This document shows positions 7,600 to 19,108 of a DNA stretch of 64,000 bases, one piece after another (within the stretch, counting starts at the first letter, position 1; each line of letters opens with the position of its first letter). The translations under genes were made by a program, and so were the position numbers. Source of the stretch: Escherichia coli. Lineage in GTDB: Bacteria > Pseudomonadota > Gammaproteobacteria > Enterobacterales > Enterobacteriaceae. The DNA is taken from the NCBI RefSeq assembly GCF_030013205.1, contig NZ_CP122648.1; one strand, given 5' to 3'. The notes beneath the pieces were generated by a model. It was not told the DNA's origin. It ran no database searches and was given only the letters and a program-made list of their open reading frames with translations.

Positions 7600-10513
<2,914 letters not shown>

Positions 10514-10518
10514 ACACT

Positions 10519-10570
10519 GCCGGATGCGGCGCGAGCGCCTTATTCGGCCTACGGGTCGTGCATCCGACAA
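10519..10570. repeat. REP element in the rhaA-rhaD intergenic region
   Basis: gccggatgcggcgcgagcgccttattcggcctac. Confidence 0.6.
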
Positions 10571-10595
10571 CACCGAATTTACAGGAACACAGAAC

Positions 10596-11420
10596 ATGCA
10601 AAACATTACCCAGTCCTGGTTTGTCCAGGGAATGATCAAAGCCACCACCGACGCCTGGCTGAAAGGCTGGGACGAGCGCAATGGTGGTAACCTGACACTG
10701 CGCCTGGATGACGCCGATATCGCACCGTATCACGACAACTTCCACCAACAACCGCGCTATATCCCGCTCAGCCAGCCCATGCCTTTACTGGCAAATACAC
10801 CGTTTATTGTCACCGGCTCCGGCAAATTCTTCCGCAACGTCCAGCTTGATCCTGCGGCTAACTTAGGCGTCGTAAAAGTCGACAGCGACGGCGCGGGCTA
10901 CCACATTCTCTGGGGGCTAACTCACGAAGCCGTTCCAACCTCTGAACTCCCGGCGCACTTCCTCTCCCACTGCGAACGCATTAAAGCCACCAACGGTAAA
11001 GATCGGGTGATCATGCACTGCCATGCCACCAACCTGATCGCCCTTACCTACGTACTGGAAAACGACACCGCGGTCTTCACTCGCCAACTGTGGGAAGGCA
11101 GCACCGAATGTCTGGTAGTGTTCCCGGATGGCGTCGGCATTTTGCCGTGGATGGTGCCCGGCACCGACGAAATCGGCCAGGCGACCGCACAGGAAATGCA
11201 AAAACATTCGCTGGTGTTGTGGCCCTTCCACGGCGTCTTCGGCAGCGGTCCGACACTGGATGAAACATTCGGTTTAATCGACACCGCAGAAAAATCAGCA
11301 CAAGTATTAGTGAAGGTTTATTCGATGGGCGGCATGAAACAGACCATCAGTCGTGAAGAGCTGATAGCGCTCGGCCAGCGTTTCGGCGTTACACCACTCG
11401 CCAGTGCGCTGGCGCTGTAA
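10596..11420 (+). CDS. rhaD: Rhamnulose-1-phosphate aldolase RhaD (274 aa)
   Basis: [37 protein letters not shown]..., a class II aldolase; ATG at 10596 with Shine-Dalgarno. Confidence 0.9.
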
Positions 11421-11429
11421 GGAGCAAAC

Positions 11430-11744
11430 ATGATCCGCAAAGCCTTTGTCATGCAGGTTAACCCCGACGCCCACGAAGAGTATCAGCGTCGGCATAATCC
11501 AATCTGGCCGGAACTGGAAGCAGTGTTGAAATCTCACGGTGCGCATAACTACGCCATTTACCTCGACAAAGCGCGTAATCTGCTGTTTGCCACGGTAGAG
11601 ATTGAATCTGAAGAACGGTGGAATGCGGTTGCCAGCACTGAAATCTGCCAACGTTGGTGGAAATATATGACCGACGTTATGCCAGCTAACCCGGATAACA
11701 GCCCAGTCAGTAGCGAGCTGCAAGAAGTGTTTTACCTGCCTTAA
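11430..11744 (+). CDS. rhaM: L-rhamnose mutarotase RhaM (104 aa)
   Basis: 104-aa [48 protein letters not shown]... immediately after rhaD. Confidence 0.9.
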
Positions 11745-11784
11745 TGAGTTGCGGTGCCGGAAAATATCCAGCACCGCGCCTTCA

Positions 11785-13179
11785 TCAGAAGAAGTATTTA
11801 AAGCGAACGCGTGCGCCGTAACGGTCATCAGTATCATCACCGTGTTTTTTATCACCGTCGCTATCCAGAATGGAGTAATACGTCCCGAGGTAAATATTAA
11901 AGTTCTCCATATCCATCACATTAGCGAACTGATAAGACGCATGAATGGTGTGAATGGTGTACGTCCCTTCATCATCAATCCAGCAGTCGTTATCACAAAC
12001 TACACCGCTGAATTCATCAATCTTATTGTGCGCGTAGATATAACCGAGCTCGAAACGTTTCCACAGCGCGTTAATCCCGGCAGTGAAATCTTTCTCATTA
12101 TTAGCATCTAAATAGGCGGTATTAAGATTAACCACGACGCCATTTTCCGGATCCGTTTTCAGGCCATTCCAGGTCATGCTCATACCATAGCCGGTACGAT
12201 CGGACTGATCGACAAAATTACCCTTGCTATCGGTATAACCATAAGCATTATTTACCACGTTCGCTTCCATCGCTGCGGAAACGGTGAATTCTTCCGTCGG
12301 CGACCAGGCAATTACTGGACGCAGATAAGCAACATTTTTCTGCTGCTCCATATCGCGTCCATGATAATTACTGTCATTATATAAAGATGTTCCGTCTTCA
12401 AGTAACGTGTTTAATTCAAAATACCAGTTATCGAGTTGTTTGCTGACGAGGAAATTACCGCCAGCGTTAGAGCGCCCGCGGCCCTCTTTCATCATATAGA
12501 TATAACCGCTGCCATCGTCATAAAGATCGTTCGCAGTATTACCGGAATGTTCAACAAAGGTATCCTGATTCAGCGGGAACATATCATAGGCTTCGAAACG
12601 ACCGACTTTGACCTTCCAGTCATTCTCTTTCCCAAAGAAGAATACCGCGTCATCAATATTCACTGAACCGTGCATATCCCCCAGCGGTTGTGCGGAGAAC
12701 CCGGCGAAATAACCATTATCCAGTTTTCGCATACCGTCAAAACCTAACAGAATACGACCATTGAGATTCCACTGTTCATTAGTGGGATCGCTATTCACAT
12801 CAGCGTTGGTCATTGCCAGCAGGCCATGATTACTTTCTGCATCCATATTAAATTCTACGTCGCCGTAGATTTTTAAATCGCCATAACCTGAGAGCAAAAG
12901 ATTAGGTGAGGTGGAATTTTTCTTTGCAGATTCCGCCGTTGCCTGTCCATTTACCGGCGTATTGCCCTGGGCAGCCTTAATTTCGCGGATCTCAGCGGCT
13001 TGTTGTGTCTGCAGCTGTTTAACCTGGCTCTCTGCTTTTGCTGCCCGCATTTCTGCCGCTTCCAGGCGTTCTTCCAGCAATGCCATGCGTTGTTCCAGCG
13101 TTAAATGCTGTGTTTTTGCCATTCCGGTACTACATGCCAATAATAAACCGATGGCTAAAGATAATGTCGATTTTTTCAT
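11785..13179 (-). CDS. Putative carbohydrate-selective outer-membrane porin (LamB/ScrY-like) with N-terminal coiled-coil extension (464 aa)
   Basis: Signal peptide MKKSTLSLAIGLLLACSTGMA; heptad-like coiled coil LEQRMALLEERLEAAEMRAAKAESQVKQLQTQQAAEIREIKAAQ; aromatic-rich beta-strand body ending in terminal Phe (..RFKYFF); AT-rich coding sequence. Confidence 0.65.
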   Translation of the reverse strand: MKKSTLSLAIGLLLACSTGMAKTQHLTLEQRMALLEERLEAAEMRAAKAESQVKQLQTQQAAEIREIKAAQGNTPVNGQATAESAKKNSTSPNLLLSGYGDLKIYGDVEFNMDAESNHGLLAMTNADVNSDPTNEQWNLNGRILLGFDGMRKLDNGYFAGFSAQPLGDMHGSVNIDDAVFFFGKENDWKVKVGRFEAYDMFPLNQDTFVEHSGNTANDLYDDGSGYIYMMKEGRGRSNAGGNFLVSKQLDNWYFELNTLLEDGTSLYNDSNYHGRDMEQQKNVAYLRPVIAWSPTEEFTVSAAMEANVVNNAYGYTDSKGNFVDQSDRTGYGMSMTWNGLKTDPENGVVVNLNTAYLDANNEKDFTAGINALWKRFELGYIYAHNKIDEFSGVVCDNDCWIDDEGTYTIHTIHASYQFANVMDMENFNIYLGTYYSILDSDGDKKHGDDTDDRYGARVRFKYFF

Positions 13180-13655
13180 TATTTACGTTCCCTGAAATAA
13201 AAGAGACCCTACGCTTTCCAAAAGGAATACGTATATAGAGAAATATAAGGTGTGCACTTTCGAATTTTTAATCCAACTTCAGCAGGCCGATGGATAGTAT
13301 CCCGCTGCATAATATGAGTAAATCCGCTGATTTCCTGGAACGTGAGGAATATAACAATAGTGCCGTTTTTAACCAAATATCGTAAAAAATATTAGATATA
13401 ATTCACGCTGACTCATAAGCCACAAATATAAATAACCTTGCTGCAAAACATGTGCGGCAGTTAAACATTCACAACATCATTAAATAATGATTTTTTATTC
13501 ACTGCATTTATTTTGCCCATCAATATGTGCCTTACACCGCAAAATTTATCCTTCACTCTGCCTTATATTGTCACGACTTCACGACATATCCGCGCTCATC
13601 ACAAAACCGCCCCGCCGTTACAATTAACAATAATATTTTTTCATGGAGTCCAATA

Positions 13656-14102
13656 ATGGCAGCACTTACTGCAAGCTGTATTGACCTGAATATTCAGGGC
13701 AATGGCACTTATTCCATTCTGAAGCAGTTGGCGACAATGGCGTTACAAAACGGTTTTATCACCGACTCACACCAGTTCCTGCAAACTCTGCTGCTGCGCG
13801 AAAAAATGCACTCCACCGGTTTTGGTTCCGGCATCGCCGTGCCGCACGGTAAAAGCGCCTGCGTTAAACAACCGTTCGTGTTATTCGCCCGCAAAGCGCA
13901 GGCCATTGACTGGAAAGCCAGCGACGGCGAAGACGTCAATTGCTGGATCTGCCTCGGCGTGCCGCAAAGTGGCGAAGAGGATCAGGTCAAAATCATCGGC
14001 ACACTGTGTCGCAAAATTATCCACCAGGATTTTATCAACCAACTGCGACAGGGCGACGCCGACCAGGTGCTTGCTTTGTTAAATCAAACCCTCAGCTCAT
14101 AA
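13656..14102 (+). CDS. frvA: PTS fructose-like EIIA component FrvA (148 aa)
   Basis: MAALTASCIDLNIQGNGTYSILKQ... PTS EIIA(Fru/Mtl-type) with GIAVPHGK around the phospho-His; ATG at 13656 preceded by GGAG. Confidence 0.85.
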   Translation: MAALTASCIDLNIQGNGTYSILKQLATMALQNGFITDSHQFLQTLLLREKMHSTGFGSGIAVPHGKSACVKQPFVLFARKAQAIDWKASDGEDVNCWICLGVPQSGEEDQVKIIGTLCRKIIHQDFINQLRQGDADQVLALLNQTLSS

Positions 14103-14112
14103 GGAAGTGGCG

Positions 14113-15564
14113 ATGGAGTCATCCTTACGTATTGTCGCGATCACCAACTGCCCCGCCGGGATCGCTCACACCTACATGGTGGCGGAAGCCCTGGAACAGA
14201 AAGCCCGTTCTCTCGGCCATACCATAAAAGTGGAAACTCAAGGATCCAGTGGCGTTGAAAACCGCTTATCCAGCGAAGAGATTGCCGCTGCCGATTACGT
14301 GATTCTCGCCACCGGGCGTGGCCTGAGCGGTGACGATCGCGCGCGGTTTGCCGGGAAAATGGTTTATGAGATTGCCATCTCCCAGGCGCTGAAAAATATC
14401 GACCAGATTTTCAGTGAATTACCGACAAATTCGCAGCTTTTTGCCGCAGATAGCGGCGTGAAGCTCGGCAAACAGGAAGTACAAAGCGGCAGCGTGATGA
14501 GCCACCTGATGGCGGGTGTCTCTGCGGCGCTGCCGTTTGTCATCGGTGGCGGTATCCTGGTGGCGCTTGCCAACATGCTGGTGCAGTTCGGTTTGCCGTA
14601 TACCGATATGTCGAAAGGCGCGCCGTCGTTTACCTGGGTGGTTGAATCCATCGGTTATCTCGGCTTCACCTTTATGATCCCCATCATGGGCGCTTATATT
14701 GCCTCGTCGATTGCCGATAAACCCGCTTTCGCTCCGGCGTTTCTGGTTTGCTATCTGGCGAATGACAAAGCCCTGCTCGGCACCCAGTCTGGCGCGGGCT
14801 TCCTCGGCGCGGTGGTGCTGGGGCTGGCGATTGGCTATTTCGTCTTCTGGTTCCGTAAAGTGCGCCTGGGCAAAGCATTACAACCGCTGCTCGGTTCCAT
14901 GCTGATCCCGTTCGTCACTCTGCTGGTTTTCGGCGTACTGACTTACTACGTTATCGGACCGGTGATGTCCGACCTCATGGGCGGGTTGCTGCACTTCCTG
15001 AACACCATTCCTCCGTCAATGAAGTTTGCGGCAGCGTTTTTGGTCGGTGCGATGCTGGCGTTCGATATGGGCGGCCCTATCAATAAAACCGCCTGGTTCT
15101 TCTGCTTCTCACTGCTGGAAAAACACATTTATGACTGGTACGCCATCGTCGGCGTTGTCGCGCTGATGCCGCCCGTCGCGGCGGGTCTTGCGACGTTCAT
15201 TGCGCCCAAACTGTTTACTCAACAGGAAAAAGAAGCCGCCAGTAGCGCCATTGTGGTCGGTGCCACGGTCGCGACCGAACCGGCTATTCCTTACGCTCTG
15301 GCGGCACCACTGCCAATGATTACCGCCAATACGCTGGCGGGCGGCATTACCGGCGTGCTGGTGATCGCTTTCGGAATCAAACGACTGGCACCTGGTTTGG
15401 GTATCTTTGACCCGCTGATCGGCCTGATGTCGCCGGTGGGTTCGTTTTATCTGGTGCTGGCGATTGGCCTCGCGCTGAACATTTCATTCATTATCGTCCT
15501 GAAAGGATTATGGTTACGCCGCAAAGCGAAAGCCGCGCAACAGGAGCTTGTCCATGAACATTGA
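14113..15564 (+). CDS. frvB: PTS fructose-like EIIBC component FrvB (483 aa)
   Basis: N-terminal EIIB (..VAITNCPAGIAHTYM..) followed by a polytopic EIIC; ATG at 14113 with AAGGAAG Shine-Dalgarno. Confidence 0.85.
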   Translation: MESSLRIVAITNCPAGIAHTYMVAEALEQKARSLGHTIKVETQGSSGVENRLSSEEIAAADYVILATGRGLSGDDRARFAGKMVYEIAISQALKNIDQIFSELPTNSQLFAADSGVKLGKQEVQSGSVMSHLMAGVSAALPFVIGGGILVALANMLVQFGLPYTDMSKGAPSFTWVVESIGYLGFTFMIPIMGAYIASSIADKPAFAPAFLVCYLANDKALLGTQSGAGFLGAVVLGLAIGYFVFWFRKVRLGKALQPLLGSMLIPFVTLLVFGVLTYYVIGPVMSDLMGGLLHFLNTIPPSMKFAAAFLVGAMLAFDMGGPINKTAWFFCFSLLEKHIYDWYAIVGVVALMPPVAAGLATFIAPKLFTQQEKEAASSAIVVGATVATEPAIPYALAAPLPMITANTLAGGITGVLVIAFGIKRLAPGLGIFDPLIGLMSPVGSFYLVLAIGLALNISFIIVLKGLWLRRKAKAAQQELVHEH

Positions 15565-18427: not shown

Positions 18428-19108
18428 TTAACGCAGGCTATTATAGTCATCGACCATTTCGTTGTACTCGCGTAACGCTCGCGGAAATGAGTCGTCGACC
18501 ATCCAGCTTGTGTTTGCATCCTGAAGTTGCTCTTTATCCCAGTCAGAGTACGGAACTTTATCTCTGACGCGGCGAACATATTTTTTAGCCTCGAGTTGAT
18601 ACTGGTCTGCCGAATTAATGAACGAGAAATTCATACCGCCTTTATCCGCTTCTTTGGCCTGCGCCACCAGCGTTTCCAGTTCAGAGACTTTCTTCATTGC
18701 CGCATCAACATCAAACTTCTCTTGCGAAATCAGGTTATTAATTTGTTTCGCTGAAATCATGACTGCCAGAGAGTAGTAGTGGAATGTTTTCCCTTCTCTT
18801 TGTTCAATATTTTTCAGTTCCGCAAGCTGGCGCTTATCGTTAATTTCCTGAATCGCCGCATGATAAGATTCTGCTACAGGTTCAAAGGCTTCAAGATTTT
18901 TTAAGAATGTCTGGTGCAGCGTTTTCCCTTTCGCAAACGCATCGTCTTTATAATTTTCCTGGGTGTAATATTTATCCATTTCGTTAATGGTATTACCCAA
19001 CGCCACGGCAGTATCAATATAACTTACCGCCACGCCATCAATAGGTTGCAGCGCAGGCGTTAACGCCACTACACGCGCTTTGTTTATAAATAAAATAATA
19101 AAATTCAC
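18428..19108 (-). CDS. yiiG: YiiG-like protein (DUF3829-type), at most 226 codons here with a GTG as the only upstream start; possibly a 5'-truncated remnant
   Basis: ORF translation recognised as the C-terminal portion of YiiG; the reading frame is closed by a stop 7 codons upstream, inside the fdhD terminator hairpin; no signal peptide or lipobox. Confidence 0.5.
   Translation of the reverse strand: MNFIILFINKARVVALTPALQPIDGVAVSYIDTAVALGNTINEMDKYYTQENYKDDAFAKGKTLHQTFLKNLEAFEPVAESYHAAIQEINDKRQLAELKNIEQREGKTFHYYSLAVMISAKQINNLISQEKFDVDAAMKKVSELETLVAQAKEADKGGMNFSFINSADQYQLEAKKYVRRVRDKVPYSDWDKEQLQDANTSWMVDDSFPRALREYNEMVDDYNSLR

Follow-up and report, generated by a model that had tools for sequence, protein, structure and literature searches.

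The window analysed here, a 64,000-nucleotide stretch of Escherichia coli DNA (contig NZ_CP122648.1), contains between rhaM and frvA a complete coding sequence of 464 codons plus stop on the minus strand (11785..13179). This 464-aa open reading frame, reported in the original prediction, is called identically in the RefSeq annotation of a genome that is 100% identical to the window, where the product (WP_025210072.1) is labelled 'carbohydrate porin'. The ORF list, Pfam, RefSeq and the identity to a plasmid porin identify it as the coding sequence of a chromosomal RafY-family glycoporin ('rafY2'). The name rafY2 comes from a study of O157:H7, which describes the gene without rafRABD genes (PMC4809568); literature searches by guessed locus tags and RefSeq protein accessions returned nothing relevant. 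The gene is an ordinary accessory porin gene, already annotated and already described.

The porin gene and rhaM are convergent, and RNAfold places a GC-rich hairpin (11751..11777) between their stop codons. The junction, 11741-11790, folds with -20.9 kcal/mol on the plus strand and -28.1 kcal/mol on the minus strand. The hairpin carries no T-run and a terminator scan of the junction found none; it is thus not a canonical intrinsic terminator. An Rfam search of 11000-14500 at E<=1 returned no RNA family.

The encoded protein starts with a signal peptide, residues 1-21 (MKKSTLSLAIGLLLACSTGMA, followed by KT; 13117..13179, minus strand), which has a model helix at residues 4-16 and a signal-peptidase I type motif kept in orthologues, and which ends at TGMA, before KT, after residue 21. 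A lipoprotein, suggested by the lipobox LLAC with Cys16, was ruled out because the orthologues have LVAN and Cys16 is not conserved. A periplasmic N-terminal coiled-coil module similar to Sugarporin_N (residues 26-70; 12970..13104, minus strand) is indicated by AlphaFold, a heptad test and PF11471. The AlphaFold model contains a 43-residue N-terminal helix at residues 28-70, with block-mean pLDDT of 83-88 over residues 31-70. Hydrophobic residues or Ala occupy 11 of the 13 a/d heptad positions, a level matched by 82 of 10,000 shuffles. The Sugarporin_N profile (PF11471) matches the porin itself weakly (E=0.06); among 44 relatives it reaches E<=0.001 in 5 and E<=0.1 in 17, with a best value of 5.9e-07, and this module would be the only part in common with ScrY-type porins.

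Residues 71-99 (12883..12969, minus strand) form a low-complexity linker, predicted to be disordered (AlphaFold pLDDT <50 at residues 72-97), which is the part of the protein that varies most between orthologues. The remainder, residues 100-464 (11788..12882, minus strand), is a 16-strand beta-barrel: the AlphaFold model shows 16 long strands and a barrel at residues 100-463 (mean pLDDT 81), and the C-terminus reads ...RFKYFF. The best Foldseek matches are 16-strand porins, namely OprB (4gey), VhChiP, OmpU, PorB, Omp32, OprP and OmpF; LamB and ScrY are not among the top 50. The signal peptide, the heptad-like coiled coil and the barrel body with terminal Phe, all of which had been proposed from the sequence, were confirmed.

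In the Pfam search the protein matches Porin_8 (PF16966, RafY glycoporin) at E=2.2e-154 over the whole model (1-372 of 372; residues 104-464), and all 44 aligned relatives match this profile too. The profiles of LamB (PF02264) and OprB (PF04966) found no match, NCBIfam gave no family match, and PDB sequence searches with the whole protein and with its N-terminal 90 residues gave chance matches only (none at E<0.7). The earlier description as a sugar porin with a coiled coil of the ScrY type was therefore correct in part: the protein is an outer-membrane porin of the sugar type with a coiled-coil extension, but its body is not that of ScrY. It belongs neither to the LamB/ScrY family nor to the OprB family, but to that of RafY, with 16 and not 18 strands. 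RafY-family proteins are described as oligosaccharide porins with 16 predicted strands (PMC4827864). The window gene thus encodes a chromosomal RafY-family glycoporin (Porin_8, TC 1.B.15), the closest kin of the RafY of plasmid raffinose operons, and is very probably not a partner of the frv PTS.

The plasmid porin used for comparison was that of p10A_p1, not of pRSD2 itself. The p10A_p1 raf cluster consists of a LacI regulator, an alpha-galactosidase, an MFS permease and GH32, with the porin last, and this porin of 464 aa is 79% identical to the window protein over 450 aa. A neighbour-joining tree places plasmid RafY as the sister of the chromosomal copies of Escherichia, inside the clade of rhaM-flank orthologues. 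In addition to length and identity, plasmid RafY (pRSD2 type) has the same order of signal peptide, coiled coil, linker and barrel. It differs in that the window gene is chromosomal, lies at the rhaM flank, is not preceded by rafRABD and carries a CRP-like promoter motif of its own that is missing upstream of the plasmid copy. Divergence between the two is greatest in the N-terminal module and linker (dN 0.35 vs 0.08 in the barrel). RafY, according to what Ulmke and colleagues reportedly observed in 1997, complements lamB and scrY mutants and increases the uptake of raffinose, sucrose and maltose; it is also said, from work of Andersen and colleagues in 1998, to be a general diffusion pore without a sugar-binding site, which would set it apart from ScrY and LamB. 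Among 45 rafY-carrying E. coli isolates, the full rafABD operon was found in only 23 (PMC12987596).

Other porins are more distant. ScrY and LamB (PF02264, TC 1.B.3) would share with the window porin the periplasmic Sugarporin_N coiled coil, as a family-level match, and oligosaccharide entry as a physiological role, but the window porin has no sequence match to the LamB family, and their barrel has 18 strands where 16 are predicted here. In structure the closest match is OprB of Pseudomonas (4gey; PF04966), with a Foldseek E=2e-12, TM 0.48/0.52 and 16 strands, but it has 11% sequence identity, no match through its own profile and no N-terminal coiled coil. In Klebsiella pneumoniae, the RafY-family porin GlyP alone suffices for a nutrient-dependent fitness gain; the gain on its upregulation was seen in a strain without its major porins, and its operon comprises the LacI regulator GlyR, a permease, a hydrolase and the porin (bioRxiv 10.64898/2026.03.29.715108). 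GlyP is similarly an accessory wide porin of the RafY family, whose expression alone shifts nutrient competition, and differs by an adjacent LacI-type repressor that is missing beside the E. coli gene. Judged by the operon description alone, it appears to fall in a paralogous clade (MFS+GH32-linked loci, about 60% identity to the window protein).

Synteny was compared in 34 species-level loci of the orthologous clade. Across the Enterobacteriaceae the constant neighbour of the porin is rhaM, with which it is convergent within 700 bp in 24 of the 34 loci, and the same rhaM-flanking site is occupied in Citrobacter, Kluyvera, Klebsiella, Trabulsiella and others. The genes rafR-rafA-rafB are found within 10 kb in 9/34 loci, upstream of the porin in 7 and downstream in 2, and in every case they have the same orientation as the porin. 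Raf genes flank the orthologues in 9 other species, and at locus L009, in Klebsiella, Raoultella and some Enterobacter; neither the window nor B2 E. coli has any in the vicinity of the porin. Such linkage, although typical of the RafY family, does not enter into its definition as a protein family. Klebsiella, Raoultella and Enterobacter have rafR-rafA-rafB-porin clusters whose porin is an orthologue (73-76% identity) and takes the same convergent place by rhaM, where rhaM is within range. The same upstream motif is present in 7 of 10 raf-linked loci (Klebsiella sp. B345, Enterobacter sp. JUb54, kpr-6, ENT03, both Superficieibacter and UBA5654) and absent in those of K. spallanzanii, K. grimontii and Raoultella terrigena. 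These clusters differ from the E. coli locus in their regulator, alpha-galactosidase and permease genes, which were lost from E. coli or never present in it. Porin paralogues close other glycan operons, with MFS+GH32 or with ABC+GH13+GH130.

Within E. coli, the gene belongs to a presence/absence segment of 1,775 bp (11746..13520), delimited by blastn breakpoints against the K-12-type locus L003, that comprises the porin gene, the hairpin and 341 bp upstream. K-12-type genomes contain in its place an unrelated 164 bp without porin remnants, and homology to them restarts at 13521, near the GTG at 13527 by coincidence. On the map of K-12 MG1655, rhaM is directly followed by frvA and there is no porin, in agreement with the earlier suggestion that the gene is missing at that position. 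Junction types were counted in 5,426 complete E. coli genomes. The porin is found in about 47% of them and is absent from 51%; B2, O157 and many animal strains have it, K-12-type strains do not, and frameshift-split copies occur. Absence from about half of the genomes, together with the frameshifted copies, implies that the porin is dispensable.

Where present, the porin evolves under strong purifying selection, whether frv is there or not. The frv-positive allele of the window and the frv-negative allele of B2 strains give a dN/dS of 0.042 at dS 0.27, and values of 0.04-0.06 were obtained against the Citrobacter and Klebsiella orthologues. Both alleles encode 464 aa, as does the representative of the 98%-identical cluster (3,990 member sequences). 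The coding sequence, described earlier as AT-rich, is indeed below the window mean in GC, but only modestly (45.0% vs 50.5%), and 13% of same-length windows have an equal or lower value. Horizontal acquisition had also been proposed from composition, and a recent acquisition was not supported: other genera use the same rhaM-flank site, synonymous divergence between E. coli lineages is equal for the porin (dS 0.27) and the rha genes (rhaA 0.20, rhaD 0.29), and GC is low everywhere, 6-12 points under rhaA/rhaD in each of the eight genera checked, rising with host GC. The low GC of the gene is no sign of recent transfer.

These data bear on the view that the porin is a functionless relic of a lost chromosomal raf cluster, silent (for example H-NS-silenced) and heading for deletion. 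The gene is an orphan, with no rafA or rafB in E. coli; it is absent from half of the complete genomes, has frameshift-split copies and has an upstream region of 36% GC, which could be silenced. A relic, however, would fit poorly with the low dN/dS in E. coli and against Citrobacter and Klebsiella, with the full length kept in both alleles and the cluster representative, or with promoter motifs that are kept across genera. We regard this view as unlikely.

The spacer between the porin and the annotated start of frvA (ATG at 13656, 148 aa) covers 476 bp (13180..13655) with 36% GC. The divergence from frvA and the AT-richness of the spacer agree with the original prediction, whereas its length of about 350 bp does not; frvA does not begin at the GTG at 13527. 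A putative sigma-70 promoter of the porin gene (13294..13323, minus strand) was located by cross-genus conserved blocks in the upstream alignment, with -35 TTTACT (13318-13323), a 17-nt spacer and -10 TACTAT (13294-13299); the blocks 'TTTAC' and 'TAnnAT' are kept across genera. Transcription would start near 13287, leaving a 5' UTR of about 108 nt. A consensus promoter scan missed 13294..13323 and gave a weaker site at 13271-13242, and promoter-like sites were fewer than in shuffles.

A CRP-like site, TGTTATATTCCTCACG (13341..13356, minus strand), is centred at about -62.5 from the putative transcription start and matches TGTGA-N6-TCACA in 8 of 10 positions, with a weak left half-site. It recurs in 30 of the 34 rhaM-flank orthologue loci scanned (32 of 36 when the window and the B2 copy are included), between -160 and -242 relative to the ATG and in spacers that are otherwise unalignable, and the upstream scan found it missing upstream of the paralogues and plasmid rafY. 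This suggests that CRP may bind at 13341..13356 and control the porin. The CRP-like site and the -35/-10 elements lie inside the presence/absence segment that is missing from K-12. The frvA-proximal 135 bp (13521..13655, plus strand), presumably the frvA control region, is common to K-12-type genomes by blastn against L003 and persists in genomes without the porin segment; the two control regions are therefore separable. A search of the spacer for repeats linking the porin and frvA promoters gave nothing convincing, with no operator repeated in both halves.

The original prediction had suggested that the porin and the divergent frvABXR PTS jointly take up an unidentified sugar, under co-regulation from the common spacer. 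Porin/PTS pairs have precedent in ScrY with the sucrose PTS and BglH with the bgl PTS. The two are divergent neighbours in the window, and the frvRXBA/porin arrangement recurs in 13/34 species-level loci, among them Kluyvera, Citrobacter braakii, C. amalonaticus, Trabulsiella and several Enterobacter, where porin and frv may share control. However, among the 5,426 E. coli genomes, 1,377 have both porin and frv; in 1,167 frvABXR has been deleted and the porin remains at intact length, and 2,790 have frv without the porin (frvB was found in 4,191); on the B2-type map, the porin is followed by a yiiG remnant. The purifying selection on the porin in frv-less B2 strains, the different upstream neighbours in Citrobacter (an HTH-cupin regulator and azlCD) and in Klebsiella/Raoultella (rafR-rafA-rafB), the position of the porin promoter elements within the porin-specific indel and the lack of a common operator also argue against a pair, and the conserved order of the rha...frv backbone accounts for the adjacency. 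At the population level the porin comes and goes independently of the frv genes and would not be half of a new uptake pair; a common system of this kind is quite improbable.

A function with the rhamnose genes, as a channel for rhamnose-containing oligosaccharides, is favoured by the frequent convergence with rhaM and by the LacI regulator, MFS_2 carrier and beta-helix protein found between porin and rhaM in K. grimontii, but is the least credible of these readings, as the convergent orientation precludes co-transcription with rhaM, comparison of the porin upstream region with the rha regulatory regions gave only chance 8-12-mers, raffinose is the sugar served by the nearest characterised relative, and K-12-type strains use rhamnose without the porin.

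As a chromosomal RafY-type glycoporin, the protein would be exported through its cleavable signal peptide and sit in the outer membrane as a barrel of 16 strands with the general-porin/OprB fold, its Sugarporin_N-type coiled-coil stalk lying in the periplasm. Its channel properties are taken from its homologue RafY: it would form a wide, poorly selective diffusion channel that passes di- to oligosaccharides such as raffinose, stachyose, melibiose, sucrose and maltodextrins faster than OmpF/OmpC, and uptake would then fall to carriers of the inner membrane such as LacY or MelB. In E. coli it is an orphan, which would be transcribed as a separate unit from its own conserved promoter and is probably activated by CRP. 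The most likely function would thus be that of a catabolite-controlled wide channel for oligosaccharides. The gene is probably an old resident downstream of rhaM that was lost from K-12-type lineages, with frvABXR lost independently from B2-type lineages.

A more specific reading, which we offer only tentatively and consider possible rather than probable, is that the porin serves as a conditional 'spare' wide channel. It would persist as a long-lived polymorphism and be induced by cAMP-CRP under carbon limitation, and would aid the scavenging of dietary alpha-galactosides and further oligosaccharides via LacY/MelB at the cost of a higher permeability to antibiotics, colicins or phage. This parallels GlyP of K. 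pneumoniae and its nutrient-dependent fitness gain.

The practical value of this work lies mostly in annotation repair: the gene should be read as a chromosomal orthologue of rafY and not as part of the frv system. An accessory wide porin that about half of E. coli strains have and the others lack could influence how oligosaccharides are scavenged in the gut. By analogy with Klebsiella GlyP, outer-membrane permeability after the loss of major porins could also shift.

Between rhaM (11430..11744, plus strand) and frvA, an open reading frame of 464 codons occupies 11785..13179 on the minus strand. The same frame is annotated by RefSeq as a carbohydrate porin (WP_025210072.1) in the complete genome of the swine isolate E. 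coli CFSAN018748, which is 100% identical to the window across this stretch, so the 464-aa porin of the original prediction is borne out. Because frvA is annotated there from the equivalent of position 13656, the porin-frvA spacer measures 476 bp (13180..13655; 36% GC); the earlier value of about 350 bp (347 bp) was derived from an upstream GTG and is wrong. In Pfam searches, residues 104-464 matched the entire model of Porin_8 (PF16966, 'porin-like glycoporin RafY'; E=2.2e-154) and residues 27-54 weakly matched Sugarporin_N (PF11471; E=0.06). Neither LamB nor OprB profiles matched, and by profile search the porin belongs to neither the LamB/ScrY nor the OprB families; searches of NCBIfam and of PDB sequences also gave no match. 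Porin_8 is small and mostly enterobacterial: at 50% identity it makes up 234 clusters out of 1.84 billion representatives.

An E. coli plasmid porin of equal length shares 79% identity with the window porin and is the last gene after a LacI regulator, an alpha-galactosidase, an MFS permease and a GH32 enzyme. This cluster is the raf operon with rafY. Roughly 190 plasmids, the majority of them conjugative plasmids of E. coli, have such a copy of the porin. The chromosomal gene was named rafY2 in a comparative study of O157:H7, where rafRABD was noted as absent (PMC4809568), and the full rafABD operon was reported in only 23 of 45 rafY-positive E. coli isolates in a 2026 study (PMC12987596). The porin is a real gene, already annotated and already named, belonging to a characterised porin family.

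An AlphaFold model built with 44 diverse relatives as input (mean pLDDT 81, pTM 0.71) contains an N-terminal signal-peptide helix, a single long helix (residues 28-70), a low-confidence linker (residues 72-97) and a barrel of 16 long strands (residues 100 to 463). In the long helix, 11 of 13 heptad a/d positions are hydrophobic or Ala, a count reached by 82 of 10,000 shuffles, and the motif LEQRLxxLExRLxxAExRA is kept in enterobacterial family members. The N-terminal extension is missing entirely in more distant members, which are about 350-390 aa long. Because individual scans match Sugarporin_N in 5 of 44 relatives at E<=0.001 and in 17 of 44 at E<=0.1, the ScrY-like N-terminal module is, as judged from sequence, real at the family level. 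Among solved structures, Foldseek ranked OprB, Vibrio chitoporin, OmpU, PorB, Omp32, OprP and OmpF highest, all of them 16-strand porins, and neither LamB nor ScrY appeared among the top 50. The RafY family had been predicted to have 16 strands, in agreement with the model (PMC4827864). The ScrY-like coiled-coil module first noted stands, but the modelled barrel is OprB/OmpF-like and not ScrY-like. A lipoprotein reading was rejected: Cys16 lies in a lipobox-like LLAC, but orthologues do not conserve the residue.

Look-ups of genomic context, together with a scan that took a single genome from each species, yielded 80 loci, with 34 species-level loci in the orthologous clade (at least 67% identity). 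In 24 of these 34 loci the porin and rhaM converge within 700 bp of each other, and in another 6 they do so within 10 kb. This adjacency is the only basis for a rhamnose-linked role, and sequence comparison found no operators shared with the rha genes. The divergent upstream neighbour is frvRXBA in 13 loci (Kluyvera, some Citrobacter, Trabulsiella and several Enterobacter). Co-oriented rafR-rafA-rafB lies within 10 kb in nine loci and also in Klebsiella sp. B345; the raf genes precede the porin in B345 and in seven of the nine, and lie downstream of it in two; these raf-linked loci include Klebsiella, Raoultella, Enterobacter sp. JUb54 and Superficieibacter. In other Citrobacter, an HTH-cupin regulator and azlCD take the upstream place instead. 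All rhaM-flank porins form one clade in an unbootstrapped neighbour-joining tree, with plasmid RafY sister to the Escherichia chromosomal copies. Paralogues of about 60% identity end other glycan operons, namely ABC+GH13+GH130 in Buttiauxella and MFS+GH32 in 12 loci; of the 12, 11 have both genes in range and the remaining locus is on a truncated contig. On the simplest reading, rha...frv forms a conserved backbone in which the porin is a long-standing resident, with raf and other catabolic modules gained and lost alongside.

Porin_8 has expanded in Klebsiella spallanzanii (loci L024, L046, L049, L074) and K. grimontii (L030, L056, L088), with three or four paralogues per genome in different sugar operons; in E. 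coli the chromosome carries no more than one copy. A contig labelled Chryseobacterium sp. 18061 (L035) carries the enterobacterial frvRXBA-porin-rhaM order at 70-88% identity to E. coli proteins, and is probably mislabelled or contaminated.

The absence of the gene at the K-12 position was confirmed, as MG1655 has frvA directly after rhaM. The K-12-type site has an unrelated 164 bp where the window has 11746..13520 (1,775 bp), and homology restarts at 13521, 135 bp before frvA. Therefore, the porin brings with it 341 bp of upstream sequence, and genomes without the porin still keep the frvA-proximal region. The porin coding sequence has 45.0% GC (GC3 46.7%), against a window mean of 50.5% and 56% in rhaA, rhaD and frvB. 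Since 13% of windows of that length have an equal or lower GC content, the predicted AT-richness is real, but only modest. Porin GC lies 6-12 points below rhaA/rhaD of the same locus in eight other genera and is higher in hosts of higher GC (45% in E. coli, 54% in Raoultella); the low GC thus belongs to the gene family as such. Synonymous divergence between the window and a B2 strain is 0.27 for the porin and 0.20, 0.29 and 0.21 for rhaA, rhaD and rhaM. Horizontal acquisition, previously deduced from composition, is not supported, given this agreement with the rha genes and the low GC elsewhere: the porin has co-diverged with its flanks, and its composition is no evidence of recent acquisition. 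Its absence from K-12-type genomes is best read as loss.

The rha genes of the window strain are unusually diverged from both a B2-type (L001) and a K-12-type genome (L003), with dS of 0.17-0.29 and 94-96% nucleotide identity (9254..13179), and the rhaM-porin stretch is matched at >=99% by only 38 of 5,597 records. These values suggest that the rha-porin region as a whole is a deep or recombinant allele. The rhaA-rhaD spacer (10514..10595) is 82 bp in the window, 176 bp in L003, 276 bp in L001 and 450 bp in K-12, probably reflecting variable repeat (REP-type) content; a 298-aa frame called from 10524 over-extends rhaD.

Recurrent adjacency across loci would favour the porin and frv as one uptake pair, the arrangement first proposed. 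Junction-specific searches over 5,426 complete E. coli genomes found the porin-frvA junction in 1,377, the porin followed by truncated yiiG with frvABXR deleted in 1,167 (B2-type, such as ATCC 11775, ST131 and 536), and rhaM-frvA without the porin in 2,790 (K-12 type). Added together, the two porin-positive counts give the 2,543 genomes in which rhaM and the porin both occur. As frvB was detected in 4,191 genomes, always as a single copy, frv is missing altogether from the B2-type genomes. Porin without frv and frv without porin are both common in these counts, which contradict the pairing and make it very improbable.

In the K-12-type genome L003, frvR is annotated as frameshifted (6584..), and IS1 lies between rhaM and frvA in the K-12-type genome AR_0128 (H42), consistent with a cryptic frv operon decaying in some lineages. 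The window yiiG (18428..19108, minus strand) is shortened to 226 aa (K-12 YiiG, 351 aa) and is annotated by RefSeq in the identical genome as a partial pseudogene missing its N-terminus; yiiG beside the porin in B2-type genomes is truncated differently. Some B2-type genomes carry a frameshift-split porin, with an N-terminal fragment of 113-122 aa and a 342-aa frame from Met123 (L095, 2673-4029; L096, 2636-4029); the truncated product is the representative of a cluster with 496 members.

Between the frv-positive window allele and the frv-negative B2 allele, porin dN/dS is 0.042 at dS 0.27 (barrel 0.023), indicating strong purifying selection. The 400 bp upstream of 23 porin orthologues were mostly unalignable except for a few blocks. 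These include, on the minus strand, a CRP-like site TGTTA-N6-TCACG (13341..13356; 8/10 match to the CRP core), a candidate -35 TTTAC(T) 19 nt past it (13318..13323) and a candidate -10 TAnnAT 17 nt further (13294..13299); the ribosome-binding region is also conserved. With transcription starting near 13287, the CRP-like site would have its centre at about -62.5, as in class I CRP promoters. Of 34 orthologous loci scanned, 30 have the motif between -160 and -242 relative to the ATG (32 of 36 including the window and B2 copies), among them loci with rafB, frvA or an unrelated gene upstream; a motif scan did not find it in paralogues or plasmid rafY. That the porin is a silent relic, as its frameshifted copies might suggest, is contradicted by the low dN/dS and the conserved promoter motifs.

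A simple consensus promoter scan did not list the proposed -35/-10, and no Rfam family matched the porin region. The convergent rhaM and porin genes have a GC-rich hairpin between them (11751..11777; -21 kcal/mol on one strand, -28 kcal/mol on the other). Within the spacer, on its porin-specific side and some 30 bp away from the indel boundary, is a near-perfect palindrome of 16 bp, ATCATTAAATAATGAT (13476..13491), which the B2 allele shares and which is not conserved in other genera.

The porin may be transcribed separately, under catabolite control, as a wide RafY-type outer-membrane channel. By analogy, such a channel would speed the entry of di- to oligosaccharides, which existing inner-membrane carriers would then handle. 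Experimental support for this role comes from relatives only, plasmid RafY and GlyP; the former was reportedly studied by Ulmke (1997) and Andersen (1998), and is reported in the latter to be a general diffusion pore that lacks a site for sugar binding. GlyP of K. pneumoniae, a member of the same RafY family as the window porin, gives a nutrient-dependent fitness gain by up-regulation alone (bioRxiv 10.64898/2026.03.29.715108). The pairing of the porin with a PTS and the inference of horizontal transfer do not hold; the observation of the gene itself is sound.
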